64,000 nt of DNA, from the NCBI GenBank assembly GCA_048268245.1, contig JBLWVX010000001.1, forward strand, positions 128,001 through 192,000, given 5' to 3'. The notes under the pieces were generated by a model. The model was given only the letters and a program-made list of their open reading frames with translations. It was not told where the DNA came from and did no database searches. The translations under genes and the position numbers were made by a program. The stretch is from Arcobacteraceae bacterium (lineage in GTDB: Bacteria; Campylobacterota; Campylobacteria; Campylobacterales; Arcobacteraceae). Below are positions 48,122 to 63,975 of this stretch, piece after piece. Each line of letters begins with the position of its first letter. Positions within the stretch are counted from its first letter, which is position 1.

Positions 48122-48982
48122 TCATAACTCTTTGTACTTGTTTTTATACCTTTGTAGCATTGATTCATTTCCTATTAATCCACCTTGGTGAATATAAAGG
48201 TAATTATTATATGCTTTATTATCATTATTTATATATCTTTCAAAAAGCTTCATTCCTAAAGAATCGTATAATAGGTCAAACTTTATGTTTGTCTGTTTTA
48301 AAAGCTCTAAATAAATTTCATAAAATTCTTTGTATAACTTTCCAAAATGATATTTCTTTACTTTTGGCAGAATTGCTGGATGATTAGATTTTTCTAATTC
48401 AAAAAATTGTTTTTTTAAATACTCTTCATCTCCTACACATGCACAAGTGATTACTTCATAAGGTAAGTACTTTTGTAAATATAATGCTGTTGTTCCTGTA
48501 CCACTTGGTAAAAATACCTTTAGGTTTTCTATACTATTTTCTTTGGCCCAAAGTTTTATCTCTTCTGCAAGGATTTTTAAGCCAAATTGAGCTTCTTTTA
48601 AAGCTCCCCCTTCTTTTATAAATAATTCATCATCATTAAAACTTTCTGGTATTTCTTTTTCATAAATATTCATACCATTTTTAAGAGCATACTTATAGTT
48701 TCCAACAGGATTATCTTTTAAAAAAGAAGCAATATGATCTACATAATAATCAAACTCTAAGCCTTTTAATTTTGATAAAACGGATAAAGAGTACATTGCA
48801 TTTGATTGAGCAGAGCCGTGGGATACTATTTTTTTTATGCCTGTTAAATCTTTTTGTAAAAAATAGTAAAATTTTCTTGCTTTATTTCCAGAAAAATCTT
48901 TATGGAGTAAGTCATCTCTTTTTATATAAAAACTATTATTGTTGTATTTGATTTTTTCAATTGGAGAGTTTGTATATTTCAT
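48122..48982 (-). CDS. PLP-dependent ACC deaminase / D-cysteine desulfhydrase family protein
   Basis: IKRDDL...SGNKARK, HGSAQSN, PSGTGTT, HQGG; ATG at 48982 preferred. Confidence 0.85.
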   Translation of the reverse strand: MKYTNSPIEKIKYNNNSFYIKRDDLLHKDFSGNKARKFYYFLQKDLTGIKKIVSHGSAQSNAMYSLSVLSKLKGLEFDYYVDHIASFLKDNPVGNYKYALKNGMNIYEKEIPESFNDDELFIKEGGALKEAQFGLKILAEEIKLWAKENSIENLKVFLPSGTGTTALYLQKYLPYEVITCACVGDEEYLKKQFFELEKSNHPAILPKVKKYHFGKLYKEFYEIYLELLKQTNIKFDLLYDSLGMKLFERYINNDNKAYNNYLYIHQGGLIGNESMLQRYKNKYKEL

Positions 48983-49049
48983 TTTAAAATTGTACCATTT
49001 ATTAATAAAATTTATGTACAATAACAAAAAAACTTACAAGAGGATAAAC

Positions 49050-49520
49050 ATGGATATACTTTTTTATATACAAAAAGGTGGTCTTATTGTCTATATACTA
49101 ATAGCTTTAAATATTATTGGATTTACTATAATTCTATGGAAACTATTTACCCTTCCAAGAAAAAATGCCATGATAAAAAAAATAGATGCTAAACTAGATA
49201 AAAACTCTACAAATTCAGTTTTTTCACAAATAGAGTACGAAGTAAAAAAACTAGAAAGTGGGCTTACATATATAAAAAATATTGCAACTATTGCACCCCT
49301 TTTAGGATTACTTGGAACTGTAATTGGAGTTTATCAATCTTTTGATGTAATCACAAAAAATGGCTTAGGTGATCCTAGTGTTTTCTCAAATGGTATTTCA
49401 ATAGCTTTAATTACAACAATTGCAGGTTTAATCGTAGCAATACCTCATCATATTGCTTACAATCATTTTATCTCACAAATTGACTCTATTGAGTTAAAAG
49501 CAAAAAGTACAATTAAATAG
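49050..49520 (+). CDS. exbB: MotA/TolQ/ExbB proton channel protein
   Basis: IAPLLGLLGTVIG, GIS.ALITTIAGL.VAIP; GAGGA RBS before ATG 49050. Confidence 0.88.
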   Translation: MDILFYIQKGGLIVYILIALNIIGFTIILWKLFTLPRKNAMIKKIDAKLDKNSTNSVFSQIEYEVKKLESGLTYIKNIATIAPLLGLLGTVIGVYQSFDVITKNGLGDPSVFSNGISIALITTIAGLIVAIPHHIAYNHFISQIDSIELKAKSTIK

Positions 49521-49521
49521 T

Positions 49522-49917
49522 ATGAAAAGAAGAGAACCTTTAGGTTTAGACTTAACCCCAATCATAGATGTAGTTTTTATACTACTTTTATTTTTTATAG
49601 TAAGTTCTGTATTTAAAAAAGATGAACTGGCTTTGATACTTGATTTGCCAAACTCAAATGCTAAAGAGTTAAAAGTAGATGAAGAACAAGTTTTTATAGA
49701 ACTTAGTTCAAATAAACTTGCAATAAAAGGAATAGAAGTATCTTTTCAATCACTAGAAGATAATCTAAAAGCTATTGAAAATAAACATAAAGCTGTATTA
49801 GTTAGAATTGATAAAAAAGTTGAATATCAACGAGTTGTGAAAGTTTTAGATTTACTTCAAAAATATGATTTAACAAATCTAGCACTTGTTACAAGTCAAG
49901 AAGAAAAAAAGGATTAA
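49522..49917 (+). CDS. exbD: ExbD/TolR biopolymer transport protein
   Basis: DLTPIIDVVFILLLFFIV, RIDK.V.Y..VV.VLD. Confidence 0.9.
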   Translation: MKRREPLGLDLTPIIDVVFILLLFFIVSSVFKKDELALILDLPNSNAKELKVDEEQVFIELSSNKLAIKGIEVSFQSLEDNLKAIENKHKAVLVRIDKKVEYQRVVKVLDLLQKYDLTNLALVTSQEEKKD

Positions 49918-50297
49918 TTTCCCTCTTCTTCTTTTTTTAATTGCTCATACTCTTCATCTGTAAAAATTCTAGACTTAGTTATAAACTGATAACCCATATC
50001 TATTTCAAGAGAAAAAGAGTTACCAAAAGCTGATTTTTCTTCTCTTACATCAATTGTAATAAAAGAGTGTCTAAAATATTCGAATTGGTCTTTATCTATA
50101 AAAAACTCACATCCACATATTTCACCAAGCTTTACATTTCTACTTGGCACATAAAAATCATCTTTTGCATAACACATAGGAGCTGTTCCATCACAACAAC
50201 CACCACTTTGGTTAAATACTAATTCACCATGTTCTTCTTGAAGTTTTTTGATTACGTCACAAGCTTCTTTTGTAACGTCTACTCTTTTTATTGCCAT
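49914..50297 (-). CDS. DUF779 family protein
   Basis: HG.LVFNQSGGCCDGTAPMCY, FSLE; usual partner of AldB-type aldehyde dehydrogenases. Confidence 0.92.
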   Translation of the reverse strand: MAIKRVDVTKEACDVIKKLQEEHGELVFNQSGGCCDGTAPMCYAKDDFYVPSRNVKLGEICGCEFFIDKDQFEYFRHSFITIDVREEKSAFGNSFSLEIDMGYQFITKSRIFTDEEYEQLKKEEEGN

Positions 50298-50322
50298 AAT
50301 TTATCCTTTTTATATATAAAAC

Positions 50323-50365
50323 AAAAAAGGTACAGAAGGAAAAGGGAGAGAGAACCTTCTGTACC
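50323..50365 (-). terminator. Terminator after aldB with 15-nt C/U-rich loop
   Basis: Minus strand: GGTACAGAAGG-TTCTCTCTCCCTTTT-CCTTCTGTACC-TTTTTT. Confidence 0.8.
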
Positions 50366-50400
50366 ACAATAAGGGGTTTAATTAAGTTTAAAACTATCTA

Positions 50401-51897
50401 TTAAAAGAATCCTAAAGCATCTTTGCTGTAAGAAGTTAAGATATTTTTAGTGTGTCTGTAAGAGTTTAACATCATCATGTGAGTTTCTCTACCGATACCT
50501 GATTTTTTGTATCCACCAAATGATGCATGTGATGGGTATAAGTGGTAACAATTCACCCATACTCTACCAGCTTCAATTCCTCTTGAGAATTTATGTAATT
50601 GGTGAGCATCTCTTGACCATACACCTGAACCTAATCCGTAGATAGTGTCATTTGCGATTTCTAATGCTTCTTCTTCAGTTTTAAATGTAGTTACAGATAA
50701 TACAGGTCCAAAGATTTCTTCTTGGAAGATTCTCATTTTATTGTGACCTTTGAAGATTGTTGGTTGAATATAGAATCCATTTGGATATTTTTCAGACTCT
50801 AAGATATCTCCACCAATTAAACACTCAGCACCCTCTTCTTTACCAATTTTAATGTACTCAGTAATTTTCTCTTTTTGGCTTAATGAACATTGGGCACCCA
50901 TCATGTTTTCAGTATCTAAAGGATCACCTAATTTAATAGCTTTAACTCTCTCTAATACTCTTGCCATAAATGGCTCATAGATATCTTCATGGATTAATGC
51001 TCTTGATGGACAAGTACAAACTTCACCAGAGTTAAATGCGAATAATACTAAACCTTCAATTGCTTTATCAAAGAACTCATCATCAGCATCCATAATTGAA
51101 GGCATAAAGATATTTGGAGATTTACCACCTAATTCTAATGTTGATGGAATAATGTTTTCAGTTGCATATTGCATAATTAACTGACCAGTTGTAGTTTCAC
51201 CTGTAAATCCAACTTTTTTGATGTCTGGGTGAGTTGATAAGTGTTTACCAATTTTTCCACCTGCACCATTAATAATGTTGATTGTACCTGCTGGTAATAC
51301 CTCTGCAATTGTTTCCATTAATACTAAGATTGACATTGGAGTAGCTGATGCTGGTTTCATAACTACACAGTTACCTGCTGCTAATGCAGGAGCTAATTTC
51401 CAAGCTGCCATTAATAATGGGAAGTTCCAAGGAATAATTTGAGCTACAACTCCGTATGGCTCATATACTTCTTGAGAAATAGTGTTTTCATCTAAATCTG
51501 AAACAGTTCCAGACTCAGCTCTAATTACAGATGCAAAGTATCTGAAGTGATCTACAACTAAAGGAACATCAGCATTTAATGTTTCTCTAATAGTTTTACC
51601 ATTATCTAAAGTTTCAGCAATTGCTAATGCTTCTAAGTTACCTTCAATAGCATCTGCTATTTTGTTTAATAAATTACTTCTTTCTACTACAGAAGTATGC
51701 TTAAATGATTCAAAAGCTTTCATAGCAGCTGCAACTGCTGCATCAACATCTTCTTCATTTGATCTAGGAATTCTTGTTAAAGTTTCTCCATCTACAGGTG
51801 AAATATTTTCAAAATACTCTCCACTTTTTGGAGCAAGCCATTCTCCACCAATAAAGTTCTCATATTGAGCTTTGTACTGCGGTTTACTATAAATCAT
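50401..51897 (-). CDS. aldB: NAD-dependent aldehyde dehydrogenase (AldB/ExaC/AcoD type)
   Basis: IIPWNFP, FTGETTTG, TLELGGKSPN, GEVCTCPSR, QEEIFGPV, FGGYKKSGIGRETH. Confidence 0.92.
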   Translation of the reverse strand: MIYSKPQYKAQYENFIGGEWLAPKSGEYFENISPVDGETLTRIPRSNEEDVDAAVAAAMKAFESFKHTSVVERSNLLNKIADAIEGNLEALAIAETLDNGKTIRETLNADVPLVVDHFRYFASVIRAESGTVSDLDENTISQEVYEPYGVVAQIIPWNFPLLMAAWKLAPALAAGNCVVMKPASATPMSILVLMETIAEVLPAGTINIINGAGGKIGKHLSTHPDIKKVGFTGETTTGQLIMQYATENIIPSTLELGGKSPNIFMPSIMDADDEFFDKAIEGLVLFAFNSGEVCTCPSRALIHEDIYEPFMARVLERVKAIKLGDPLDTENMMGAQCSLSQKEKITEYIKIGKEEGAECLIGGDILESEKYPNGFYIQPTIFKGHNKMRIFQEEIFGPVLSVTTFKTEEEALEIANDTIYGLGSGVWSRDAHQLHKFSRGIEAGRVWVNCYHLYPSHASFGGYKKSGIGRETHMMMLNSYRHTKNILTSYSKDALGFF

Positions 51898-51970
51898 TTT
51901 TCATCCTTTTTATTATTTTAATTATTTTGAGAAAATTATTTGCTATGCCATAATTTTTCTGCTTGATGAA

Positions 51971-52024
51971 AGTTTACACGAGAAATATAGCGTGAATTTA
52001 GCCTAAGTATAGCCTGAATATAGC
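51971..52024 (-). promoter_or_regulatory. aldB promoter with four 11-bp-periodic TAGC boxes
   Basis: Plus-strand TAGC at 51988, 51999, 52010, 52021; minus-strand -10 TAAACT at 51971-51976. Confidence 0.75.
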
Positions 52025-52116
52025 AATGTAGTTTTTTGACACAAAATCCCTAAAAATGGTGCTTTTATTACCTTTTTTTTCTTTGTTTTTTTTGATTTAT
52101 TTGCTACAATTTTTTT

Positions 52117-54033
52117 ATGAAAACATATAACTATACAATTAAAGACGAATCTTTAGAACTGTTAATAGACTTTGACACTTTAAAAAAAGAAAAAAACATA
52201 TTAATACAAATTTTTTGTGGTCAATCAAAAGAAATTATGAAAACTATTCTAAATAAATTGAAAAAAGAACTTCCTCAAGCAATTTGTATTGGCTCATCTA
52301 CTGATGGAGAGATAGACAATGCAAATATTTCTACAAAAAGAACAGTAATATCTATATCAGTATTTGAAAAAACTCAATTAAAAGTAGCCTATGTACAAAA
52401 TGACAACTCTTATATAAATGGTCAAAAACTAGCAAAGCAGTTATGTAATGAAGATACAAAACTACTTATTACATTTACTGATGGTGAAACTACAAATGGG
52501 GAAGAGTTTTTAAAAGGTATAAGCTCTATTAATAGTAAAGTAGTTGTAAGTGGTGGAATGGCAGCAGATAATGCAACCTTTAAAGAAACATTTATTTTAT
52601 GTCAAGATAAGATTATTACAAAAGGTGCAGTTGCTGTATCTCTTAACTCTAAAGATTTAAAAATTTGTAATGCTTATAACTTTAACTGGTCACCAATAGG
52701 AATAGATCATGAAATAGAAGAAGTTAAAGATAATAGGGTTTATAAAATCTCAGGATTAACACCTTTAGACTTTTATGAAAAATATTTAGGTGAATATGTT
52801 GCAAAAGCCTTACCTGCAACAGGAATAGAGTTTCCTTTAATTGTACAAAAGAATGGAATGCCACTAGCTAGAGCTGTAATTCAAAAACATAGTGATGGAA
52901 GCTTAAGTTTTGCAGGTAATTTAAATAAAGGGGATATTGTAAAGTTAGGCTTTGGTAATGTTGAGCTTATAATGAACAACCCTTTACAATCTTTATTTAA
53001 TAAGTGTTCAGTAACAGGTGTTGAGTCATTTTTTATCTATACTTGTATGGCAAGAAGAAGATATATTCCTGATTTAATTGATATTGAAATTAAGCCATTT
53101 TCAGAAATTGCAAATACATCAGGATTTTTTACATATGGAGAGTTTTATCATAATGATGGGCACAATGAGTTATTAAACCAAACATTAACAGTTGTTGGAC
53201 TTAGTGAAAATAGTGAAATAACTTATGAAGAAAAAGAAGAAGTAGAAGAAAAAAATGACAATGATGATATAAGTGAACAAGCAAGAAGCTTACAAGCTTT
53301 AACACATCTAATTGAACAATCTTCAAAAGATTATAGTAATCAATCTAAGAAGTTAGAAGAAGGAAATAGATACGCTCAAAATTTGCTTGAGTCACAAAAA
53401 CAGTTTTTAAAATATACAATTCATGAAACAAATACTCCCCTTTCAATTATTATGGGGAATATTGACATGTATGAAATTGAGCATGGAAAAAACAAATATT
53501 TATCTAATATTGAAGTTGCTATGAAAAATGTTTTTAGTATTTACGATGATTTAAGTTACTTAGTAAAAAAAGATCATGTAAATAAAGCAACACATGAAAT
53601 AAACTTAGTTGATTTTGTAAGAAGTAGAATTGAGTTTTTTACTCAAACTGCCCTAAAATTTAAATCAACACTAAATTTTATTCATAATATTGATGAAATA
53701 AATATAAGTTTCAATGAGATTAAACTTCAAAGAATAGTTGATAACAATCTTACAAATGCAATTAAATATACATTACCAAATGAAACTATATATGTAAAGC
53801 TTATATATAGAAATAATGAGTGTGACTTTATAATTGAGAGTCGTTCAGTTCAAATACTAGAACCTCAAAAGATTTTTGAAGAGTATTATCGAGAAGAAGA
53901 ATCAAAAGATGGTTTTGGACTTGGACTAAATCTTGTAAAAAGAATTTGTAGTGAAGAAAATGTTGGAATAAAACTAGAGTCTGGTGAAAACTGGGCTTCA
54001 TTTACTTATACATTTAAAGGAATTGAAAAATGA
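52117..54033 (+). CDS. Cytoplasmic FIST-domain sensor histidine kinase
   Basis: FIST motifs IGSSTDGEI, SGGMAAD, WSPIG, EFPL, YTCMARR, GFFTYGEF...LLNQT; H-box HETNTPL, NAIKY, GFGLGL; no TM segment. Confidence 0.9.
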   Translation: MKTYNYTIKDESLELLIDFDTLKKEKNILIQIFCGQSKEIMKTILNKLKKELPQAICIGSSTDGEIDNANISTKRTVISISVFEKTQLKVAYVQNDNSYINGQKLAKQLCNEDTKLLITFTDGETTNGEEFLKGISSINSKVVVSGGMAADNATFKETFILCQDKIITKGAVAVSLNSKDLKICNAYNFNWSPIGIDHEIEEVKDNRVYKISGLTPLDFYEKYLGEYVAKALPATGIEFPLIVQKNGMPLARAVIQKHSDGSLSFAGNLNKGDIVKLGFGNVELIMNNPLQSLFNKCSVTGVESFFIYTCMARRRYIPDLIDIEIKPFSEIANTSGFFTYGEFYHNDGHNELLNQTLTVVGLSENSEITYEEKEEVEEKNDNDDISEQARSLQALTHLIEQSSKDYSNQSKKLEEGNRYAQNLLESQKQFLKYTIHETNTPLSIIMGNIDMYEIEHGKNKYLSNIEVAMKNVFSIYDDLSYLVKKDHVNKATHEINLVDFVRSRIEFFTQTALKFKSTLNFIHNIDEINISFNEIKLQRIVDNNLTNAIKYTLPNETIYVKLIYRNNECDFIIESRSVQILEPQKIFEEYYREEESKDGFGLGLNLVKRICSEENVGIKLESGENWASFTYTFKGIEK

Positions 54034-54689
54034 AAATATTACTTTTAGAAGATGATATTATGTTAAATGAGATGATTACAGAATATTTAACTTCAACTGG
54101 TCATTCTATTACTAATACAACAAAAGGTGACGAGTGTCTAAATATTTTAGAAGAAGAAAAGTTTGATTTATTAATACTTGATATAAATGTACCAAATATT
54201 GATGGATTAACTGTTTTAGAGCAATTACATGAAAAGAAAAGAATGATACCAACTATATTTATATCAGCACTTATTGATATTGAAGATATTGATAGAGCCT
54301 TTAATATAGGTTGTCATGATTATCTAAAAAAACCTTTTCACTTAAGAGAGCTAACACTTAGAATAAATAAAATTCTAAAAACAAATATTGCTCCACAAAA
54401 ACATAAAAGGTTATCAAAAAACTATAGTTTTGATGCAGAGACTATGACTTTATATTTTAATAATGAGCCTCATATCTTACCTAAAAGACAACTTCAAATT
54501 ATTGAATTACTAGCTCATAATAGAAGCTTAGTTGTACAATACGATATGTTTAGAACCTATGTTTGGAATGATGATTTTATAGACAATGCGACAATTAGAG
54601 CAGAAGTAAATAGAGTAAAAAAAGTTTTAAAAGAAGACTTTATTAAAAATATTAGAGGAAGTGGTTATATGGTTGAAAGACCAAACTAA
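54030..54689 (+). CDS. OmpR/PhoB-family response regulator
   Basis: LLEDD, LDINVP, DYLKKPF; winged-helix C-terminus IKNIRGSGY; overlaps the kinase stop. Confidence 0.93.
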   Translation: MKILLLEDDIMLNEMITEYLTSTGHSITNTTKGDECLNILEEEKFDLLILDINVPNIDGLTVLEQLHEKKRMIPTIFISALIDIEDIDRAFNIGCHDYLKKPFHLRELTLRINKILKTNIAPQKHKRLSKNYSFDAETMTLYFNNEPHILPKRQLQIIELLAHNRSLVVQYDMFRTYVWNDDFIDNATIRAEVNRVKKVLKEDFIKNIRGSGYMVERPN

Positions 54690-54698
54690 CCCTTACTT

Positions 54699-55568
54699 CT
54701 AAAACTTAATAGATACATAAAAGCTTAAATCAAACTCATTATCATCACTTAGAAAGTTGTTTTTTCTATACTCCACATAAGATGGTTTTGTTGTTGTTTC
54801 AAACTCACTTCTAGGTAACCATTCATGATAAACCCAATGAATAAACTTTAAAACATCCCCATGTACTCCTTGCAAATCAAATCTAGCATAAACTCCATCA
54901 GCTATTTTAAAGTCAGGAAGTCTATCACTTTTTACCTCTTCCTTTGTTTCAAGACAAGCAATATATTGACAATCATTTAAAGGAGTTATTGAAGGGTTAT
55001 CATGAAAAAGCGCAATCTCTTTATACTCTTTTATATCATTTGATAATCTCCAAACTTGCATTTTCTGCCACGCTTGTTTTATATTTATGTTATAACCCCT
55101 ATTTCTAATATAGTATGCTTTTCTAAAAGGCATCTTTACAATGGTTGGTGTTATTTCATTAAAATTAGCTTTTGACTCCATGGCTTTGGGTGACTGTTGT
55201 AAAATATTGTTAGAGTATTCTTTATATCCACCCTTTTTCCATTGTTTTGGAGTCATTTCAAATCTCTCTTTAAAAGTTTTAATAAAAGATGATTGAGAGG
55301 AGTATCCACACTCATTTGCAATTTCAGATATTGTTGAATATTTATTTGTAAGAAGTAAATTAGATGCTTTTTGTAATCTAATAGATTTGATACTCTCATA
55401 AATATTTTTTCCAAATGCTTCTTTGAATATTCTATGCATATGAAATTTACTAATATCTAAATCAATACTAAGCTCTTCTATATCGATGTTTGTTTCAATA
55501 TGAGTATAAATATAAAACATTATATCATTGGCTATTTTTGTTCTTTTTTGTAGTGTCTCTTTTTTCAT
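54699..55568 (-). CDS. AraC-family regulator with C-terminal GyrI-like domain
   Basis: SKFHMHRIFK..FG, IA.ECGYSSQSSF..FK..F..TP; HDNPSITP...CQY.AC, IY.EWLP.S-like; ATG at 55568. Confidence 0.9.
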   Translation of the reverse strand: MKKETLQKRTKIANDIMFYIYTHIETNIDIEELSIDLDISKFHMHRIFKEAFGKNIYESIKSIRLQKASNLLLTNKYSTISEIANECGYSSQSSFIKTFKERFEMTPKQWKKGGYKEYSNNILQQSPKAMESKANFNEITPTIVKMPFRKAYYIRNRGYNINIKQAWQKMQVWRLSNDIKEYKEIALFHDNPSITPLNDCQYIACLETKEEVKSDRLPDFKIADGVYARFDLQGVHGDVLKFIHWVYHEWLPRSEFETTTKPSYVEYRKNNFLSDDNEFDLSFYVSIKF

Positions 55569-55708
55569 AAGATAGATTATAGCACAAATAAAATATAAAA
55601 GTAGCACTAACAAACAATTTTAACAGCACTTAAAAAGAAGAATTATTTCTGAATTTTTCATACAATAACTACAATTCAAATATAAGTAAGTATTTTAGGA
55701 AGAAAATT

Positions 55709-56365
55709 ATGGACTTAAATAAACAAATGAATTTAGTTTTGCAACAATGTGAATCTATTAATTTACAAAAATTAAAATTAGATACACTACTAATTATTGT
55801 TCATCATCTACTAAGTGATTATAAAAAAATGCAATTACCAAAAGATGAAAAAGAAACAAAGTTTATTCATGACAATGTAAAAAATCTAAAAAATTATTTA
55901 GACAATAATATTGTAACAAGTGAAACACTTTCATATGTTTTCCAGAACCAAAATAAGTCTTCAACACTTAAAAAAATATCAACTAATTTAGAACCAATGA
56001 GGGCTTATTATAAATTCCTAACCTCAATCTTTTCTTCCCAACTAAAGAAGGGTTCGTATTGGATTCCTGAACTACTTGCTTTTAGTTTGATTTACAGTTA
56101 TAAAAAAGAGTTCGAAAAATCTTTTTGTTCATATACGTTCATTGAAAGCTTCCCTATTGAAAAGATACTAAATATCTACAATGAAAACAATATAGCAGTA
56201 AAGAAAAATATATCTCAAAAAGAGAATATTCCAACTTGGAAAGTTAAGACAAGTTTGGATGAGATGTATGATTTATCTGAATATATGATAAAAAAGTATC
56301 TGACATACAATTTCAAAATAAATACAAAAAGAGTTTCAAAAACTAGAAAAAAAAGAAGAAGATAG
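55709..56365 (+). CDS. Hypothetical protein
   Basis: 218-aa ORF with AGGA RBS; basic C-terminal tail; no recognised motif. Confidence 0.7.
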   Translation: MDLNKQMNLVLQQCESINLQKLKLDTLLIIVHHLLSDYKKMQLPKDEKETKFIHDNVKNLKNYLDNNIVTSETLSYVFQNQNKSSTLKKISTNLEPMRAYYKFLTSIFSSQLKKGSYWIPELLAFSLIYSYKKEFEKSFCSYTFIESFPIEKILNIYNENNIAVKKNISQKENIPTWKVKTSLDEMYDLSEYMIKKYLTYNFKINTKRVSKTRKKRRR

Positions 56366-56376
56366 ATTTAAATCTA

Positions 56377-57510
56377 TCAAGCTTCTAAAAATGAAATAGA
56401 ATTTTTTCTATTTCTGTAAAAAATCTTTTGATCGCTATAAGTTATACTATCTTGGATTTTTTGCGTAACAACTGCATGGTCAGGTGATTTAGAACACACA
56501 GGATCTGCAGCATTCATCTCTCCTGTTAGAGCAAAGGCTTGGCATCTGCAACCGCCAAAGTCTTTGTCTCTTTCATCACAAGTACGACAAGGCTCTTTCA
56601 TCCAACTATCACCTCTAAAATAATTAAAGGCTTTTGAATCATACCATACTTCTTTTACAGAGTTTTCTTTTACATTTGGAAAATCTAAAGGTAAAGTATT
56701 TGCTGTATTACATGGAAGTGCAACCCCATCAGGATTGATAGTTAAAAAAGTAGTACCCCATCCATTCATACAAGCTTTTGGTCTATCAGCAAAATAATCA
56801 GGTACAACTAAAAATACTTTCATAGCATCATCTTTTTGTCTATACTCATTTACTTTTGCTTTTGCTTCATCTAATTGCTCTTTTGAAGGAAGCAATGCAT
56901 TTATATTTTTTAATGCCCAACCATAATATTGAATATTTGCAATTTCTAAATAATTTGCCCCAAGAGTTTCAGCAAATTCAATAATCTGCCCTACTTGATG
57001 AATATTTTGTCTAGTAATACAAGTATTAACTATAAGTTGAAGTCCTGCTTCTTTTACTTCTTTAGCAAAAGCAATTTTTTCTTTATATGAATTTTTATTG
57101 TTAGTAATTAAAGTCATAGTATTTTCATCATGAGATTGAATACCTAACTGTACTGTTTTAAGGCCTGCATCTTTTAGTTTTTTTACTATTCCTTTTGGAG
57201 CACCAACACCTGATGTGATTAAATTAGTATAAAACTTTAAATCATTTGCTTTTTGAACTATATCAACTATATCTTTATTTAATAAAGGCTCTCCACCTGA
57301 AATACCAAGTTGAACAGCACCAAGTTCTCTAACCTCATCCATTACTCTAAACCAATCATCTTTGCTCATAGCATCTTTTGTATTTACAAAATCAAGTTGA
57401 TTATAACAATATGAACACTCTAAAGGACACTTATGAGTTAATTCTAAAAGTACCCATAAAGGGGGCTTTATATCTAGTTTCTCATTATTGTTTTTATCAT
57501 TAATCGACAT
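56377..57510 (-). CDS. pqqE: PqqA peptide cyclase (radical SAM/SPASM)
   Basis: ELTHKCPLECSYC (CxxxCxxC), SGGEPL, KACMNGWG, MKEPCRTC...DFGGCRCQA. Confidence 0.96.
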   Translation of the reverse strand: MSINDKNNNEKLDIKPPLWVLLELTHKCPLECSYCYNQLDFVNTKDAMSKDDWFRVMDEVRELGAVQLGISGGEPLLNKDIVDIVQKANDLKFYTNLITSGVGAPKGIVKKLKDAGLKTVQLGIQSHDENTMTLITNNKNSYKEKIAFAKEVKEAGLQLIVNTCITRQNIHQVGQIIEFAETLGANYLEIANIQYYGWALKNINALLPSKEQLDEAKAKVNEYRQKDDAMKVFLVVPDYFADRPKACMNGWGTTFLTINPDGVALPCNTANTLPLDFPNVKENSVKEVWYDSKAFNYFRGDSWMKEPCRTCDERDKDFGGCRCQAFALTGEMNAADPVCSKSPDHAVVTQKIQDSITYSDQKIFYRNRKNSISFLEA

Positions 57511-57769
57511 ACTGCACCCACTTTCTTTCAAATGCTTCATTAAAAAACGCTTCTATATCTTTTTCTAAACCAGACATTTCAAACTTTTTTTCTAAAGTTT
57601 CTACTATCTCATTAAAACTTTTTGTTCCATCACACTGGTTCATAATTTCACCAGCACTTTGATTTAACTGAACCATACCTTCAGGATACAATAATACAAA
57701 ACAGTCTTGTGCTTTTTCAAATTGTAATTGAAAGTGATTATTCACTACAATTAATTTTTCTTTGTGCAT
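57500..57769 (-). CDS. pqqD: PqqA-binding peptide chaperone
   Basis: [18 protein letters not shown]...CDG. Confidence 0.95.
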
Positions 57770-58496
57770 CTTCTACCCCTTCTATATTAAAGTATGGAGG
57801 TTGTTTTAATTCATATGCTAGATATAAAGCATCACACATAGTCCATAAAATATCTAATTTAAATTGTAATATTTCACAAGCTTTACTTTGTAGTTCAACT
57901 GTATTAAACTCTTCTAAAGTTAATGATAATCCATGTTGGACATCTCTTCTTGCTTCACTTAATCTTTTTTGGAAATATCTTAAACCTTTTGGTTCAATCC
58001 AAGGATAATTATCAGGCCAAGTATTAAGTCTTTGTTGATGAATTTCAGGAGCAAACATCTCAGTTAAAGATGACATTGCAGCCTCTTTCCAAGGTCTTTG
58101 TTTTGCAAAATTTATATATGCTTCAACTGCAAACTTAACAGATGGTAAAACATATTTATGAGAAATTAAGTCCTGCTTATTTAATCCAACAGCTTCACCT
58201 AATTCAAGCCAAGCTTCAATTCCTCCACCAACACTATCATGGTCAATAATTCTATCTATCCACTTTCTTCTATCTTCTAAAGGAGGATTATTTGACATGA
58301 TTGCAGCATCTTTAATAGGAATTGCTGTTTGATAATAAAATCTATTTGCTACCCATCCTTGAATCTCTTCTTTTGTACATTCACCTTTATACATTCTAAT
58401 ATGAAATGGATGATGTATATGATACATCTTACCCATAGCTCTTAATTTTTGTTCAAACTCATCTTTTGAAAGTAATTGGTCAATTTTTTTAGTCAT
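57738..58496 (-). CDS. pqqC: Pyrroloquinoline-quinone synthase
   Basis: [41 protein letters not shown]. Confidence 0.96.
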
Positions 58497-58512
58497 AATA
58501 TTCTCTCCTTTA

Positions 58513-59430
58513 TTATATTTCTATACTCATACCATCATAAGAAACTTCAATTCCATGTGAAATAAGCTCCTTATACTCATCACTACTCTCATCTAAGATA
58601 GGATTTGTATTATTTATATGAATTAGTATTTTTCTTGGTTTTTCTAAACTATCTAAAACTTTGATAAGTCCCTCTTCTCCACTTAATGGAATATGTCCCA
58701 TATCAGTTCCAAGCTTATTTGAAAAGTTTCCTTTTATCATTTCATCATTTGTCCATAATGTTCCTTCTATTAAAAGAACATCTGCATTTCTCATTTCTTC
58801 AAATACATGGTCTTCCATAACACCAAGTCCAGGTAAATAAAATAGTCTTTTTCCTGTATTTTTATTTACAACAGTTATTCCTATATTATCACCCTTTCTA
58901 GGTTTATCTCTATACTCTGAGTATGGAGGTGCATTTGAAATTAATGCATGGGCATAAAACTCATAACTAGGCATTACAGGAATTTCAAATTTTGTAGTTG
59001 AATCTGGTAAGATTTCATGCCAGGCAGTTCCTCCACCATCCCAATGTTTTAGCATTTTCATAGTAGGAAATGATGTGTTTAATTCTTCATTTACTTCTTT
59101 TGTACAGTAAATTTGATGAGGACATCCCTCTCTTAACATAAGTAGACCTGTTGTATGGTCAATTTGTGCATCATTGAAAACAATAGCTTTTATTTTTGTT
59201 TCTCTTTTTTTAGTTGGGTGTAAAAAAGGGGAATTATGAATTTGCTCTAAAATATCTGGTGAAGTGTTAAATAAAACCCAGTTTTCACCATCTTCACTTA
59301 TAGTAATAGAACTTTGTGTTCTTCTTTTAATAGTTTCTTTACCTTCTCTGTAACCCTTACAGTTATCACAGTTACAGTTAAACTGAGGAAGTCCTCCTCC
59401 TGCACCTGATCCTAAAACTTCTATTCTCAT
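58513..59430 (-). CDS. pqqB: PQQ biosynthesis protein B
   Basis: [45 protein letters not shown]. Confidence 0.96.
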
Positions 59431-59443
59431 AATCTTCCCTTAA

Positions 59444-59488
59444 CTCTTTTTATAATTAAGTCTATTTTAGACTTAATTATAAAAAGAG
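59444..59488. repeat. Perfect 21-bp inverted repeat upstream of the pqqB RBS
   Basis: CTCTTTTTATAATTAAGTCTA-TTT-TAGACTTAATTATAAAAAGAG. Confidence 0.85.
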
Positions 59489-59513
59489 CAAACTAGCCGA
59501 AACTAGTTTACTC
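59481..59513 (-). terminator. Intrinsic terminator between pqqA and pqqB
   Basis: Minus strand: GAGTAAACTAG-TTTCGG-CTAGTTTGCTC-TTTTT. Confidence 0.8.
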
Positions 59514-59523
59514 AAATTAGGTT

Positions 59524-59598
59524 CTACTCGTTACAAATATACATTGTTACTTCAAAACCAAATCTATTATCTACAAACATAGGTGTTTCCCATTTCAT
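59524..59598 (-). CDS. pqqA: PQQ precursor peptide PqqA (MKWETPMFVDNRFGFEVTMYICNE); not in ORF track
   Basis: Manual translation gives 24 aa with W..P...D.R.GFEVTMY (E-x-x-x-Y); AAGGAGG RBS upstream; directly before pqqB. Confidence 0.97.
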   Translation of the reverse strand: MKWETPMFVDNRFGFEVTMYICNE

Positions 59599-59634
59599 AA
59601 CAATTACCTCCTTTGTAAGATTTTTGTGTTCAAA

Positions 59635-61425
59635 CTACTTATGTAATTTGAACACGTGTACTGAACCACCTTGGTTTAAAAGCTTAACAGCTTTTGCAAC
59701 TTCACCACCCCATAAAGGAACGGCTCCACCCCAACCAGATACTACAGCAATATATTGCTCACCATTTTGCTCCCAAGTAATAGGAGAAGAAACGATTCCA
59801 GATCCAACATTAAATGAGTATAACTCTTTACCCGTTTCATCATCTAATGCTAAAAGTTTACCTTCTGGATTACCTGTAATTACTAAACCACCAGCAGTAG
59901 TTAAAACTCCACCCCATAATGGTGCTTTGTTTTTATAAATCCACTTAATTTTTCCAGTTACAGGATCAACAGCTTTGATAGCACCAATGTGATCTTCGTA
60001 AATAGGTTTAATAGTAAATCCAGCACCTAAGTATGCTGCACCTTTTTTATAAGAAACAGGTTGATTCCAAATATCCATTCCCCACTCATTTGCAGGAACA
60101 TAGAATAATCCAGTTTTTTGTGAGTATGCCATTGGATTCCAGTTTTTCCCACCTAAGAATGAAGGTACTGAGAATACAGATTTACCTTTTTTCCCATTTA
60201 CAGGAGCTCCAGGTCTATTATCTTCATTTACTATAGGTCTACCATTTTCATCAATTCCTTTAGCCCATGTGATTTTATCAACAAAAGGAGTAGATCTGAT
60301 GTATTTACCATTAACTCTATCTAAAACATAGAAGAATCCATTTTTATCAGCAGTAGCACCGGCTTTTACAACATTTCCATTTTCATCTTTGTAATCAAAT
60401 GGTATAAATTCAGCCATACCATCGTAATCCCATCCATCATTTGGAGTAGTTTGGTAATGCCATACAACTTTACCAGTATCAGGATTTACAGCAACTCTTG
60501 AAGCAGTGTATAAGTTATCACCTTTTCTTAAGTGAGAATTCCAAGGTGCAGGGTTTCCAGTTGGAACATAAATTAAGTCTGTTTCAGGATCGTAAGTTAC
60601 ACCATTCCATGGAGCACCACCACCATGTTTCCAAGTATCACCTTCCCAAGTAGCATTTAAAGTACCAGTAATACCATTTTCTTTACCATTTAAGTATCCC
60701 ATATGTCCTTCAACCATTGGTCTAGTCCATATTAATTTACCTGTATTTGGGTTTCTAGCCTCTACTTTACCAACAACACCAAATTCACCACCAGATACAC
60801 CAGTAATTAACATATCTTTTACGATAAGCGGAGCAGCTGTAAATGAGTACCCATCTTTATACTTAGCAATTCTTTTTTTCCATTTAACTTTACCAGTCTT
60901 TCTATCAAGAGCAACTAGTTTTGCATCAAGTGTTCCAAAAATAACTAAATCACCATATAATGCAGCACCTCTGTTAATAACATCACAACAAGGTAAAATT
61001 GCATCAGGAAGTCTTGCATCATATTGCCATAACTCTTCACCAGTTAAAATATCAATAGCAAAAAGTCTAGAGTAAGAAGCAGTTACATACATAACTCCAT
61101 CTTTAACTACAGGTTGAGACTCTTGTCCTCTTTGTTTTTCCCCACCAAAACTAAAGTTCCATACTGGAACTAAATCTTTAATTGTGTCTTTGTTGATTTG
61201 AGTTAATGTTGAGTATCTTTGACCTTTTGGTCCTAAACCATAACTAACTACATCACCAGGTGTTTTTGCATCATTTACGATTTCATCATATGTAACTGGT
61301 GCAAATGATGGTTTTGTAACTTTTGTTATGCTATTATTTTCTGTGTTGCTAGACATAGCACATCCACTAATTAGTGCAGCTAGTGTAACGGCAACTGCAC
61401 TAGTTAGCAATCTATTCTTATTCAT
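59635..61425 (-). CDS. pedH: Type I PQQ-dependent alcohol dehydrogenase, lanthanide-dependent PedH/ExaF type, predicted lipoprotein
   Basis: Vicinal C146-C147 (PCCDVINRG), E214 (SGGEFG), [10 protein letters not shown]333-Y-D335-[12 protein letters not shown]; lipobox ISG-C22. Confidence 0.88.
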
Positions 61426-61477
61426 CTTCTCTCCTTCTTAATTTTGATAACAAACCTGAAAAATTTGTCTGAAAAGA

Positions 61478-61509
61478 AGTATACATAAGAAATATAGCCT
61501 CAGTTTAGC
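61478..61509 (-). promoter_or_regulatory. pedH-like promoter with two TAGC boxes
   Basis: Plus-strand TAGC at 61495 and 61506; minus-strand -10 TATACT at 61478-61483; closely resembles the aldB promoter. Confidence 0.72.
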
Positions 61510-62287
61510 TATGATTTACTTTTTTAGATTTAAAACCTACAAAGGCCATTATTAGGGTTATTACTAAAGAAATTAGCACAATTATTAAAGAGTTTGCATC
61601 AATTTTTAGATATAAAGTAAATCTTATAGACTCAACTATATAAGTAAATGGATTATAAGATGATATATTAAATAAAATAAGTGATGAATCTTTTATTTTC
61701 CATAAAGGATATAAGGCACTACTTAAGAAGAACATCGGAAAAATCACAAAGTTCATTACTGTAGCAAAGTTCTCTAACTGTTTAATTACAGAAGAAATAA
61801 ACAGTGCAAATGCATTTAGTATTATTGAAGAAATCATAATAATTGGAATTGTTGCTAAAATAGCTAAAAAAGATATATCAACCCCATAAACTTTTGCAAT
61901 GAGTAAAAAAGTTACCGCTTGTATTGTAGATACAATTGCTGTTGCAAACATCTTACAAAAAAGTAAATAGTTTCTATTGATATAAGAAGATAGTAAAATT
62001 TTCATACTTCCCATTTCTCTATCAAATATCATAGTAAGACTACTTTGCATACCATTGAAAAGTAAAACCATTCCAACAAGTCCTGGGACTATGTATGTTT
62101 CATAAGTGATATATGTTTCATATGGAGGAATAATAGCTAAACCTAAAGCCGTTTTAAAACCCACTGAGAAAATAAATAACCATAATAAAGGTCGCACTAG
62201 AGCTGAAAAAAATCTACTTTTTTGTTTTACAAATCGAATTAACTCTTTATAGATAATTCCTTTCATACAATTTATATAAATATTCAT
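61505..62287 (-). CDS. ABC-2 type permease of the PQQ-ADH-associated transporter (PedC-like)
   Basis: SALVRPLLWL..F..GF...LG..I.PPYETYITYE.YIVPGL..M.LLFNGMQSSL.M..DREMGSM, FPMFFLSSALYPLW. Confidence 0.87.
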   Translation of the reverse strand: MNIYINCMKGIIYKELIRFVKQKSRFFSALVRPLLWLFIFSVGFKTALGLAIIPPYETYITYETYIVPGLVGMVLLFNGMQSSLTMIFDREMGSMKILLSSYINRNYLLFCKMFATAIVSTIQAVTFLLIAKVYGVDISFLAILATIPIIMISSIILNAFALFISSVIKQLENFATVMNFVIFPMFFLSSALYPLWKIKDSSLILFNISSYNPFTYIVESIRFTLYLKIDANSLIIVLISLVITLIMAFVGFKSKKVNHS

Positions 62288-62290
62288 CTT

Positions 62291-63013
62291 TTACCTTACT
62301 ATTTGATTGAATGTATCAACCAAGTTATCTTTTTCATACTTTTTAACAATATCTTTTACAATTCCAGACTCTACTATCTCACCTTTTTTAATAAATGATA
62401 TATCATCATCTTCTTTTACTTCATCAAAAAGATGTGTAATCCATAAAACACTTAAGTTTTCTCTTTTTACTAAATCTCTAACATAATCTAAAATATCAAA
62501 TCTACTTTTTAAATCAAGCCCAACTGTAGGCTCATCTAAAAGTAATAGCTTTGGTTTATTTATCAAAGCTCTCAAAATTTCAACTCTTCTTCTATGACCA
62601 CCATTTAATTTTCTAGCAGTAATATCTAGTGAATCCTGTAATTCAAGCCTTACTATTTCATTTTCTACAGATTTTATAGTATCTTTAAAACCTAAACCTT
62701 TAAGTGAACCATAATAATAAAGATTTTGTCGTACGGTTAAATCTAAATCCAAAGTTGGTTCTTGAAAAACAATACCTATATCTTTTAAGGATTTTGAATA
62801 ATTTTTTATTGAGTGTTGATTTATATTTATAGTTCCAACTTCAAGTTTTAGAAGTCTAGTAATTAGTGAGAATACTGTAGATTTTCCAGCTCCATTTAGT
62901 CCTAGCAGAACAGAAAAACTGCCCTGCTTTATACTAAAAGATATATTATTTAATACCTTTTTAGATCCATAAGAAAAATCTACATCTTTTAATTCTAAGA
63001 TATTTTTTTCCAT
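62291..63013 (-). CDS. ABC transporter ATP-binding protein (PedB-like)
   Basis: GLNGAGKST, VFQEPTLDLDL, LNGGHRRRVEI.RAL, LLDEPTVGLD. Confidence 0.9.
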   Translation of the reverse strand: MEKNILELKDVDFSYGSKKVLNNISFSIKQGSFSVLLGLNGAGKSTVFSLITRLLKLEVGTININQHSIKNYSKSLKDIGIVFQEPTLDLDLTVRQNLYYYGSLKGLGFKDTIKSVENEIVRLELQDSLDITARKLNGGHRRRVEILRALINKPKLLLLDEPTVGLDLKSRFDILDYVRDLVKRENLSVLWITHLFDEVKEDDDISFIKKGEIVESGIVKDIVKKYEKDNLVDTFNQIVR

Positions 63014-63015
63014 GA

Positions 63016-63975
63016 TTATTTACTTGGGATTACTGCTAAGCCCCAAGGGTATCTTCCAACTTGAATAGTTTTCTTAACTTTTAAAGATTCTACATCAATA
63101 ACAGAAACATCACCACTTACACCATTTGTAGTATAAAGTTTCTTTTCATTATTTGCAAAATCAAGCATCCAAACTCTACTTCCAACTAATAAGTATTTGA
63201 TTACTTTATATGTCTTTGCATCAATTACAGCTACATGATTTGCAGGTCCTAAACCAACAAAAGCATATTTACCATCACTTGTTAATTTAATACCAACTGG
63301 TTGAATTAAATCTTTAAAGATTCCAGGAATTTTAAAAGAAATCTTTGAAAGTGGCTCTTTAGTTTTTGTATCTATAACCATTACAGTTCCACCAATTTCA
63401 CTTGATGCCCAAATTTTATCACCACTTTTTGTAAATTCAATATGTCTTGGTCTTTGATCTACTAAAGTATTATGAACAATCTTTTTAGTTTTTGTATCAA
63501 TCCAATGTAAAAAGTTTGATGTTTCTGATGTATTAATAGCTATTGATCCATCTGGACTTACAGCCATACCCTCAGGCTCAATACCAACTTCTATTTGAGC
63601 AACTACATCTTTTTTTTGAACATCTACAACTGTTACAATTCCATCATCTTCATTTGATATGTAAAGTTCTTTACCATCTGGATGTAAAGCAAATTGTTCT
63701 GGATCTTCACCTGATGGAAGGCTATATAAAATTTCACCAGTTTTTGTATCCATAGCTTGAACTGTATCATCATCACTTGCACAAATATATAGTTTTGAAT
63801 AATCTTTTGTAAGTAGAATTCCTCTAGGTCTTTGACCAACCTCATAAGTTTTTATAACTTTATCTGTGTTTGAATCTATAACAGTAATAGTATTATCTTT
63901 CTCATTTGAAACAAAAATAGTATCTGCTAGTAAACTTGTTGATAATAATGCAGATGCTAATAATAATCTCTTCAT
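63016..63975 (-). CDS. YVTN beta-propeller protein, PQQ-dependent catabolism associated (PedA2-like)
   Basis: Signal peptide; VSNEKDNT, VGQRPRG, LPSGEDPE, VGIEPEGMAVSPDG, VGRYPWG repeats. Confidence 0.87.
   Translation of the reverse strand: MKRLLLASALLSTSLLADTIFVSNEKDNTITVIDSNTDKVIKTYEVGQRPRGILLTKDYSKLYICASDDDTVQAMDTKTGEILYSLPSGEDPEQFALHPDGKELYISNEDDGIVTVVDVQKKDVVAQIEVGIEPEGMAVSPDGSIAINTSETSNFLHWIDTKTKKIVHNTLVDQRPRHIEFTKSGDKIWASSEIGGTVMVIDTKTKEPLSKISFKIPGIFKDLIQPVGIKLTSDGKYAFVGLGPANHVAVIDAKTYKVIKYLLVGSRVWMLDFANNEKKLYTTNGVSGDVSVIDVESLKVKKTIQVGRYPWGLAVIPSK

Follow-up and report, generated by a model that had tools for sequence, protein, structure and literature searches.

A two-module ped/exa-type gene cluster with a lanthanide-type alcohol dehydrogenase and a shared operator box in Arcobacteraceae

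The window considered here is a 64,000-nucleotide stretch of an Arcobacteraceae genome (G000:C1:128001-192000), on a contig that runs 10.3 kb past the window end. Its right part and the adjoining sequence are likely to encode a chromosomal two-module system of the ped/exa type for periplasmic ethanol oxidation, long resident in the Arcobacteraceae, which probably oxidizes other short alcohols as well. Genes were named from an open reading frame (ORF) listing and from Pfam and NCBIfam profile scans, with scores compared to curated cut-offs, and the family comparison set consisted of 184 Arcobacteraceae genomes (152 of them high-quality; 22 genera). An original prediction made from the window had announced a self-contained ethanol-to-acetate island with its own synthesis of pyrroloquinoline quinone (PQQ) and a PedA2BC-like transporter. 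The genes it named (YVTN propeller, ATP-binding cassette [ABC] ATPase, permease, PQQ-dependent alcohol dehydrogenase [ADH] and pqqABCDE) are all present at the positions given, all on the minus strand, and so are an aldehyde dehydrogenase with DUF779 and a FIST kinase/OmpR pair divergent from the aldehyde dehydrogenase. A gene for an AraC/GyrI-like regulator and a 218-aa orphan ORF had escaped it; on the whole, it was largely right. The PQQ-ADH pathway is very probably as described, and the lanthanide-type alcohol pathway is indeed complete across the cluster when the genes past the window end are counted.

The ADH is the sole member of the TIGR03075-type family in its genome, and there is therefore no calcium-type backup. 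Judged by its active-site residues, it is a PedH-like enzyme of the lanthanide type. Among all PDB sequences, the best matches are 6zcw and 6zcv (850 and 845 bits), compared with 711 bits for the calcium-type ExaA (1flg) and 340-354 bits for XoxF enzymes. The available text of one survey describes 6ZCW as the lanthanide-dependent PedH with a bound praseodymium ion (PMC11996626), and a motif with two Asp residues is treated as the lanthanide signature in the accessible part of another (bioRxiv 10.64898/2026.07.10.737718; for the second Asp also PMC11996626). This motif reads W-D333-Y-D335-G in the window ADH, W-D-F-D-G in PedH and W-D-F-S-G in ExaA, such that D335 aligns with an Asp of PedH and with a Ser of ExaA. 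The vicinal Cys pair C146-C147, E214 (GGEFG), N291 (GNP) and the catalytic D333 align with both 6zcw and 1flg. D-x-D is found in 6/6 aligned family orthologues and the calcium-type W-D-F-S-G in 9/9 second-tier family paralogues; among 99 ADH rows, 93 read D, three read S (the paralogues) and three fall outside the regular expression. The lanthanide type claimed in the original prediction thus agrees both with PedH being the best PDB match and with the presence of D335, and dependence of the enzyme on lanthanides in vivo is likely. The N-terminus carries a lipobox (L-I-S-G-C, Cys22) followed by a linker of ~20 residues, and a lipobox is found in 15/21 distinct family orthologues; the ADH is predicted to be anchored as a lipoprotein. 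PedH and ExaA are soluble periplasmic enzymes.

The cofactor can be supplied from the same locus, as had been foreseen: pqqABCDE follows the ADH gene, PqqB, PqqC, PqqD and PqqE all exceed their equivalog cut-offs, and the precursor peptide PqqA carries the E-x3-Y motif and is 74-100% identical in relatives. The cluster extends beyond the window end after the PedA2 propeller. The term self-contained has consequently to be dropped, since PedA1, PedF, a PedG-like protein, a SoxYZ-like carrier and a 'relay' metallohydrolase are encoded 0.7 to 8.2 kb past that end. Parts missing from the window had been expected on its right side, which holds for the cytochrome c550 PedF and the binding protein PedA1 and fails for pqqF, under cut-off genome-wide, and for a TonB receptor, none of which lies beside the cluster (four are encoded elsewhere in the genome). 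PedF has one CxxCH, at residue 66, and a signal-like N-terminus. The PedG-like protein is so named because it follows pedF and has the SBP_bac_3 fold type; it was also considered as XoxJ/MxaJ, which was rejected, only generic amino-acid binding proteins being matched by sequence.

From these components, ethanol would be oxidized at the lanthanide-PQQ site and electrons would pass through PedF to a cbb3 oxidase, for which ccoN is found in the genome (687 bits). Acetaldehyde would enter the cell, where an ExaC-like enzyme, without signal peptide or transmembrane segment and hence cytoplasmic, would convert it into acetate and NADH; acetate could then be activated through AckA, also present in the genome. 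Two observations weigh against the latter half of this route. The best model for the aldehyde dehydrogenase is NF050026 (ExaC), yet its 828.6 bits are below the cut-off of 900, and the label ExaC-like was chosen for this reason although the protein is a clear PF00171 member. Neither an AcsA-type synthetase nor an isocitrate lyase scored above cut-offs genome-wide, so that ethanol is not predicted to support growth as the only carbon source.

The cluster consists of two modules with different distributions. Module 1, the more widespread one, groups exaC-DUF779 with the FIST-kinase/OmpR pair and, as a rule, with the AraC-type regulator and the orphan ORF; its role would be the cytoplasmic conversion of acetaldehyde into acetate. 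Module 2, from pqqE to pepA, comprises the lanthanide-type ADH, pqqABCDE, PedA1-A2-B-C, an optional protein in the lutC slot, PedF and accessory proteins. This division is drawn from two results. First, G056, a genome of the same genus without ADH, displays on one contig the order exbB-exbD-DUF779-exaC-kinase-regulator-AraC-orphan followed, after 57 nt, by fba; what is missing is the segment from pqqE to pepA, ~17.2 kb, the first 7.6 kb of which lie inside the window. Second, a survey of the family for PQQ genes and ADH, which had been suggested earlier, finds ADH in 57/184 genomes (53/152 high-quality; 10/22 genera) and PqqC in exactly the same 57, compared with an ExaC orthologue in 114/184 (16/22 genera). 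The latter include 53 of the 57 ADH-positive genomes, and the assemblies of the other four are fragmented or incomplete, at 20 to 250 contigs and 76-94% completeness. Gene order was compared with the loci of G055, G032, G169, G170 and G155, plus the ADH-negative G056. The order of the whole cluster is conserved in the first five, one of the same genus and four of other genera, and DUF779 is syntenic with exaC in 5/6 relatives' genomes, the exception being G155, whose 20-kb locus L017 stops before exaC. On the left, exbB-exbD adjoins DUF779 in G055, G032, G170 and G056 and is kept where the PQQ module is absent; it is thus a conserved flank that may belong to the system.

A repeat search brought out a box with the sequence GCTAAAC-TCAG-GCTATAA in the direction of transcription, i.e., 18 nt with two 7-mers spaced 11 bp. 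Genome-wide, nine hits with up to three mismatches were found against 2.5 expected from base composition, and seven against 0.14 with up to two mismatches; relative to shuffled sequences, hits with up to three mismatches number 3 against 0.06 expected for the window and 6 against 0.01 for the locus L216. Eight of the nine genome-wide hits are in the cluster, each oriented with its downstream gene, and it seems clear that one shared box precedes every transcription unit of the cluster. A TAxAxT hexamer follows 7/8 cluster boxes at 6-8 nt, the distal exaC box being followed instead by the proximal one. Eight relatives' loci contain 29 hits, 27 of them <400 nt upstream of a cluster gene and in the same orientation, including exaC of G056, where the PQQ module is absent, and the calcium-type ADHs of G043, G155 and G170. 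The box upstream of exaC is kept in G055, G032, G169, G170 and G056, and that upstream of the ADH in G055 and G032. Regarding the weight of these counts, caution is called for on two points: the pattern was taken from two copies, which match by construction, and at up to three mismatches the G170 locus has only two hits and the G155 locus one.

As to the protein that recognizes the box, two regulators encoded in module 1 come into question. The FIST kinase is soluble, having no transmembrane-like segment, and is 67-94% identical in the five relatives with it (G055, G032, G169, G170 and G056), which include the PQQ-lacking G056; its partner, the OmpR-type regulator, is present in every relative locus reaching its position. 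A 7-4-7 layout phased by 11 bp, abutting a -10 element and replacing the -35 element, is the classic PhoB/OmpR arrangement. The AraC-type regulator is encoded in G055, G170, G155 and G056 and is absent from the G032 and G169 loci, which also lack the orphan ORF; both loci have the OmpR-type regulator, and the boxes persist there. Based on this persistence and on the layout, the OmpR-type regulator may, on balance, be the protein that binds the box. It is fairly unlikely that the box is instead a target of the AraC/GyrI-like regulator or of another regulator, encoded elsewhere, with the FIST pair controlling something else. The AraC gene does sit between the two modules, and AraC-family proteins also bind direct repeats near -35, but the loci without this gene keep their boxes and the phasing next to the -10 hexamer is of the PhoB/OmpR type. 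It is thus proposed that the FIST-kinase/OmpR pair controls both modules: a signal perceived by the kinase would lead to phosphorylation of the OmpR-type regulator, which would then bind the shared 18-nt box at the -35 position.

The transporter encoded by module 2 is PedA2BC-like, as originally predicted. Its binding protein, propeller and permease are above their family cut-offs; the ATPase, at 282.6 bits, is below the 302.25 required by TIGR03864, which counts against the assignment, although this is still by far its best-scoring model. No solved relative of PedA1 was found by sequence. The published claim taken up in the original prediction, that PedA1A2BC supports lanthanide-dependent growth of Pseudomonas putida, is correctly cited, the evidence in the available text being a 100-fold shift in lanthanum requirement (PMC6839425). 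By analogy, PedA1-A2-B-C would be a Lut-type system for lanthanide uptake, as implicated in Pseudomonas and Methylorubrum. The family provides a natural comparison in this respect. Among the 57 ADH-positive genomes, 48 have the orthologue tier only (74-99% identity), four have both tiers and five, spanning three genera, have only the 58-60% paralogue of the calcium type. The PedA2 propeller is found in 51/184 genomes, namely 50/52 with a lanthanide-type ADH, 0/5 with the calcium type only and 1/127 without ADH. The two lanthanide-type genomes without PedA2 are assemblies 76% and 78% complete, and that of the sole ADH-negative, PedA2-positive genome is 85% complete. In a calcium-only genome, the 20-kb locus encodes PedF, the calcium-type ADH and pqqA-E, without PedA1, PedA2, PedC or unk138 (a small exported protein considered below). 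No statistic is attached to the pattern because related genomes are not independent samples; it is in line with the part that PedA1A2BC is published to play in growth at low lanthanide (PMC6839425).

That PedA1-A2-B-C is not a lanthanide importer but an exporter, a device for ADH maturation or a transporter of PQQ, alcohol or aldehyde is unlikely. Such functions would be consistent with the NCBIfam label of the permease, 'alcohol ABC transporter', with ABC-2 permeases usually being exporters, and with a second importer dependent on a substrate-binding protein (SBP) in the same module. Furthermore, the substrate is not known to have been directly shown, the support from Pseudomonas being the shift in lanthanum requirement (PMC6839425). 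Against them, the propeller tracks the lanthanide-type and not the calcium-type ADH within the family, although both enzymes need PQQ and oxidize alcohols, and in a Methylobacterium genome homologous operons are part of lut-type clusters that include a TonB receptor. With regard to the second importer, the genes for DUF302, DUF411 and the SBP-dependent ABC importer (L002:2845-6116, window-equivalent 65845-69116) form part of the PQQ module and have the regulon box. In some distant metagenome loci, the transporter likewise has NMT1-like and permease genes as neighbors.

For the ADH itself, it can be asked whether calcium, or either metal, is used in vivo, the D-x-D motif and the Ped transporter being inherited baggage without lanthanide dependence; this is improbable. 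The extra Asp, required for lanthanide use in characterized enzymes, is no proof of lanthanide dependence here, and type 2b ADH clades are said to mix calcium and lanthanide enzymes in the accessible part of a recent survey (bioRxiv 10.64898/2026.07.10.737718). Moreover, neither the cluster nor the ~10 kb of contig that follow the window contain a TonB-dependent receptor, lanmodulin genes and a metallophore pathway not having been searched for. However, a separate Ser paralogue is kept in the family (9/9), so that the Asp/Ser difference is maintained; the PedA2 propeller tracks the Asp form (50/52) and is missing from Ser-only genomes (0/5); and the nearest solved structure is that of the lanthanide enzyme PedH. 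Within the family, the calcium-type (W-D-F-S-G) paralogue may accompany the lanthanide-type ADH or replace it. Such paralogues are located at L016:16838-18706 (G170), L017:7272-9152 (G155) and L018:9406-11286 (G043). The paralogue in G170 lies just past exbB, and exbBD is thus enclosed by the cluster, and a second copy of pqqA follows the one in G155. At G167:C15:400587-402369, the match to the lanthanide-type ADH is split into two neighboring segments (residues 2-351 and 351-596), which suggests a frameshifted or broken gene.

The history of the cluster can be approached from its ADH. Named relatives are an Arcobacter sp. (97%) and members of Aliarcobacter, Arcobacter and Poseidonibacter (74-82%), and the nearest sequences outside the family come from Gamma-, Alpha- and Betaproteobacteria (62-71%). 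A tree was computed from 99 rows: the window ADH, 15 family orthologues, three family paralogues as root and the best 80 named outside hits, all loci being retained. All 27 Campylobacterota ADHs of the lanthanide type form one clade (support of 99 in the Shimodaira-Hasegawa-like approximate likelihood ratio test, SH-aLRT), sister to four gammaproteobacterial rows (91) within a Gamma/Beta group (98). The tree is a quick one (IQ-TREE, LG+G4, SH-aLRT support only), which tempers what can be drawn from it. Conservation across genera extends to both flanks, with exbBD, a PALP-like gene and a Cache kinase to the left and pepA plus fba to the right. We read these data as a single old transfer from a proteobacterium with subsequent vertical descent and losses, transfers within the family being possible. 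The old acquisition that had been surmised from composition is thus borne out by conserved order and flanks and by the single clade, and the cluster genes are, as stated, AT-rich like their host (24 to 36% guanine plus cytosine [GC], genome 27.9%). A recently acquired mobile genomic island, as the word island first applied to this region suggests, is very improbable: the PQQ module does occur in just 57/184 family genomes, is variable within the genus and has an ADH clade nested among Pseudomonadota sequences, but its GC content equals that of the genome, two of the enzymes have host-adapted codon bias, the region has no transfer RNA gene, no integrase or transposase among scanned ORFs and no long flanking direct repeats, and the same chromosomal site with both flanks recurs in several genera along with one ADH clade.

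Codon usage was expressed as the fraction of C-ending Phe, Asn, Tyr and Ile codons against a crude background set of 2387 ORF calls. ExaC has an index of 0.42 (97.6th percentile) and the ADH one of 0.34 (94.7th), with a genome median of 0.17; the remaining cluster genes range between the 2.7th and 83rd percentiles. The preference for C-ending codons noted earlier in the aldehyde dehydrogenase and the ADH is hence real, the other cluster genes being ordinary. Five ribosomal proteins, EF-Ts, trigger factor, aconitase, isocitrate dehydrogenase, a succinate dehydrogenase subunit and cytochrome b are among the top 20 genes, and since these belong to translation, the tricarboxylic acid cycle and cytochrome b, the index tracks an expression-linked bias. 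From this bias, long residence and high expression of ExaC and the ADH are probable.

Regarding PQQ maturation, a PqqF/G peptidase is found in some PQQ producers and is not universal. The best match to TIGR02110 (pqqF) genome-wide has 54 bits against a cut-off of 320. Because pqqF is absent, the second M17 aminopeptidase paralogue at the right end of module 2 was considered, and this cluster-linked pepA is put forward as a hypothetical candidate for the processing of PqqA in place of PqqF. Some PepA match is found in 176/184 family genomes. Matches of at least 494 bits occur in 53/57 PQQ-positive against 6/127 PQQ-negative genomes, near the cluster where checked; the split is soft, as the score tiers almost touch (494.9 vs 484.3 bits). 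The cluster-linked pepA is missing together with the PQQ module in G056. Immediately 3' of pqqA lie a terminator-like hairpin and, after it, a second one, which is perfect and 21 nt long. The pqqA transcript is known to exceed the pqqB-E transcript, and the terminator-like hairpin fits this excess. It is the one noteworthy result of a terminator scan of the region whose yield is near chance (7 found, 4.5 expected, standard deviation 2.2), and a scan for sigma-70 promoters is not above chance either (67 found, 78.1 expected).

Between pedA2 and pedA1, unk138 encodes a small protein with a signal peptide and without any Pfam or NCBIfam match. Homologues are numerous (811/835 candidate proteins scored at E <=0.001); among 120 matches listed, none has a Pfam domain and one bears the NCBI name 'cupredoxin domain-containing protein'. 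The AlphaFold model (predicted local distance difference test score, pLDDT, 83) is a beta-sandwich, and Foldseek aligns it with cupredoxin domains from copper nitrite reductases and from multicopper oxidases (probability 1.0, query-normalized template modeling score 0.5-0.6, 13-17% identity). The mature protein has neither Cys nor Met and no conserved His; since the His/Cys/His/Met ligands are missing, it has no type-1 copper site. Residues D63, E67, N78, N87, E90, E100, D102 and E104 are invariant in an alignment of 23 sequences. Gene context was evaluated in 80 metagenome loci. For distant homologues (<65% identity), PedA1 or PedA2 is directly upstream in 16/37 and PedB or another transporter gene directly downstream in 13/39; of 26 fully evaluable loci, 13 have any transporter gene within 2.5 kb and the other 13 have no Ped neighbor. 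The usual order in such loci is pedA1-pedA2-X-pedB-pedC, and a Methylobacterium genome has a homologue (44% over 79 aa, E 4e-21) flanked by LutA-/LutB-type genes and, on the other side, by the permease gene, a TonB receptor being encoded downstream. The lutC slot is that between the lutB propeller and the lutE ATPase, and deletion of lutC is reported in the available text to cause a small growth defect with lanthanum (PMC7391723). By its gene neighborhoods, unk138 is an occupant of the lutC slot of Ped/Lut operons in several phyla. Two further assignments were discarded. A universal part of the transporter is not compatible with its presence in only 19/51 PedA2-positive family genomes and in 1/5 and 2/5 outside genomes tested, although all 19 occurrences among the 184 genomes are PedA2-positive. 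LanD is described, in the accessible part of the source, as a 6.8-kDa three-helix bundle (PMC11551332), in contrast to the beta-sandwich modeled for unk138. The protein can also be found solitary in unrelated contexts, with a YkuD transpeptidase neighbor in 3/5 inspected non-Ped loci.

Taken further, these elements could form a lanthanide-obligate regulon, in which the FIST kinase and OmpR-type regulator would switch on exaC, ADH-pqqABCDE, the transporter, PedF and the accessory operons via one box, the pepA paralogue would replace PqqF, and the LutC-like cupredoxin would be an optional periplasmic partner of the propeller in lanthanide handling. This extended scheme is possible, although rather doubtful. 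If true, it would define a transcriptional circuit for lanthanide-type alcohol oxidation for the first time outside Pseudomonadota, and rare-earth users would gain a phylum that includes food- and water-borne relatives of Arcobacter. To our knowledge, nearly all lanthanide-dependent alcohol oxidation with experimental support is from Pseudomonadota and a small number of methylotroph lineages. Arcobacteraceae are common in marine and sewage habitats. A PedH-type system is present in ~28% (52/184) of their species genomes, 48 of these 52 being without calcium-type backup, and, if it is functional, the availability of rare earths would control alcohol use in the family. Genomes with the lanthanide type only, the calcium type only, both or neither constitute a natural experiment. 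The shared box offers a directly testable handle on regulation.

Features of the cluster and its flanks are listed in Table 1. Further left, past exbBD, the conserved neighborhood includes a double-Cache sensor kinase (46181-48100, minus strand) and a weakly PALP-like ORF (48122-49027, minus strand), for which no link to the cluster was seen. The 218-aa orphan ORF has no Pfam or NCBIfam family match and no usable atlas match, and is 50-98% identical in G055, G155, G170 and G056.

Table 1. Features of the cluster and its flanks. Adding 63000 to L002 coordinates gives window-equivalent positions; bit scores are followed by the cut-off where one is given.
Feature	Position	Strand	Family match or remark
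exbB-exbD	48939..49917	+	PF01618, PF02472; conserved left flank
DUF779 protein, downstream of exaC	49914..50297	-	PF05610, 125 bits
ExaC-like NAD-dependent aldehyde dehydrogenase	50401..51897	-	PF00171, 519 bits; NF050026, 828.6 bits
Tandem box pair upstream of exaC	51985..52024	-	88 and 110 nt from ATG; four 7-mers in 11-bp phase
FIST_N-FIST_C-HisKA-HATPase sensor kinase	52117..54033	+	PF08495, PF10442, PF00512, PF02518
OmpR/PhoB-family response regulator	54030..54689	+	PF00072 + PF00486; ORF overlaps kinase stop codon
AraC-family regulator with GyrI-like effector domain	54699..55613	-	PF12833, PF06445
Orphan 218-aa ORF, strongly basic C-terminus	55709..56365	+	between AraC-type regulator and pqqE
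pqqE, radical SAM/SPASM enzyme	56377..57540	-	TIGR02109, 478.7 (381); left end of variable PQQ module
pqqD	57500..57769	-	TIGR03859, 99 (46)
pqqC	57738..58496	-	TIGR02111, 331 (240)
pqqB	58513..59430	-	TIGR02108, 377.6 (245)
Terminator-like hairpin, 12 pairs + T-run	59486..59513	-	immediately 3' of pqqA; inverted repeat I10
pqqA, 24-aa precursor peptide	59524..59598	-	E-V-T-M-Y (E-x3-Y) motif
PedH-like PQQ-ADH	59635..61425	-	TIGR03075, 783.4 (480); 783.6 in genome search
Box upstream of ADH	61492..61509	-	67 nt from ATG; 8 nt, then TATACT
PedC-type ABC-2 permease	61505..62287	-	TIGR03861, 344 (241)
PedB-like ABC ATPase	62291..63013	-	TIGR03864, 282.6 (302.25)
PedA2/LutB-type YVTN beta-propeller, exported	63016..63975	-	TIGR03866, 502 (287)
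unk138, exported 138-aa LutC-like protein	L002:1152-1568 (window-equivalent 64152-64568)	-	no family match
PedA1-type binding protein	L002:1697-2845	+	TIGR03863, 422.6 (413.6)
DUF302	L002:2845-3300	+	
DUF411	L002:3297-3695	-	
SBP-dependent ABC importer: ATPase, permease, NMT1-like binding protein	L002:3692-6116	-	
Cytochrome c-550 PedF	L002:6251-6664	+	TIGR04494, 206.2 (122)
PedG-like SBP_bac_3 protein	L002:6668-7534	+	pedG position
SoxYZ-like carrier	L002:7544-8281	+	TIGR04557
'Relay' metallohydrolase	L002:8278-9183	+	TIGR04558
pepA, second M17 aminopeptidase paralogue	L002:9185-10609 (window-equivalent 72185-73609)	-	
fba	from L002:10703	-	right flank
Further boxes			distance to ATG: pedA2 44, unk138 42, pedA1 40, NMT1-like ABC operon 31, pedF 47 nt
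Other box positions	L216:8520-8537, 9111-9128, 9141-9158, 13648-13665, 13688-13705		
Ninth box	G000:C12:37184-37201		precedes pyridine-nucleotide-disulfide oxidoreductase gene, contig C12

Searches combining Arcobacter, Arcobacteraceae or Campylobacterota with PQQ, lanthanide or ethanol retrieved no paper describing such a system in the searchable literature, subscription journals and genome-annotation records being outside its coverage. The main text, as available, of two lanthanide surveys makes no mention of these taxa (PMC11996626; bioRxiv 10.64898/2026.07.10.737718). In the accessible part of a transcript study, PQQ-dehydrogenase transcripts are assigned mainly to Colwellia, and Arcobacter is among the taxa with aldB transcripts (PMC7284936).

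Compared with known systems, the closest resemblance is to the P. putida KT2440 ped cluster, with which a PedH-type lanthanide ADH, an ExaC/PedI-type aldehyde dehydrogenase and all four transporter genes are shared, as is the order pedF, pedG-like, SoxYZ-like and metallohydrolase, corresponding to PP_2675 to PP_2678 in the available text (PMC12997753). Unlike in P. putida, no calcium-type PedE is encoded, pqqABCDE lies directly behind the ADH gene, the ADH has a lipobox, a protein occupies the lutC slot, and pedA1 is divergent from pedA2BC. Neither PedS2/PedR2 (LuxR-type) nor the PedD pentapeptide protein is seen in the cluster; in their stead it has the soluble FIST kinase, the OmpR-type regulator and the direct-repeat box common to its units. 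The exa system of Pseudomonas aeruginosa likewise combines a PQQ ethanol dehydrogenase, cytochrome c550, an NAD-dependent aldehyde dehydrogenase and an adjacent pqq operon, and it is without PedG, SoxYZ-like carrier and metallohydrolase, all present here, according to the accessible part of the same source (PMC12997753). Its ExaA, in contrast, is of the calcium type, with Ser at the position of D335. With the lut cluster of Methylorubrum extorquens, the homologous SBP (LutA/PedA1), exported propeller (LutB/PedA2), ATPase and permease are held in common. The likeness in the lutC slot is drawn through the unk138 family in a Methylobacterium genome, LutC of M. extorquens AM1 not itself having been compared. 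Unlike in the lut cluster, no TonB receptor LutH, LanD or lanmodulin is seen beside the transporter, and the ADH is of the ethanol type and not XoxF. The operator resembles the pho box in its architecture, two 7-bp direct repeats 11 bp apart at the -35 position and 6-8 nt before a -10-like hexamer, and differs from it in its unrelated sequence and in that the partner kinase is a soluble FIST-domain protein rather than a membrane sensor. By homology, the system is therefore not categorically new, curated models naming almost every gene of this homologue of a well-known one. It is noteworthy as a variant, apparently undescribed in its phylum, with the lanthanide type only, another set of regulators and a shared operator.

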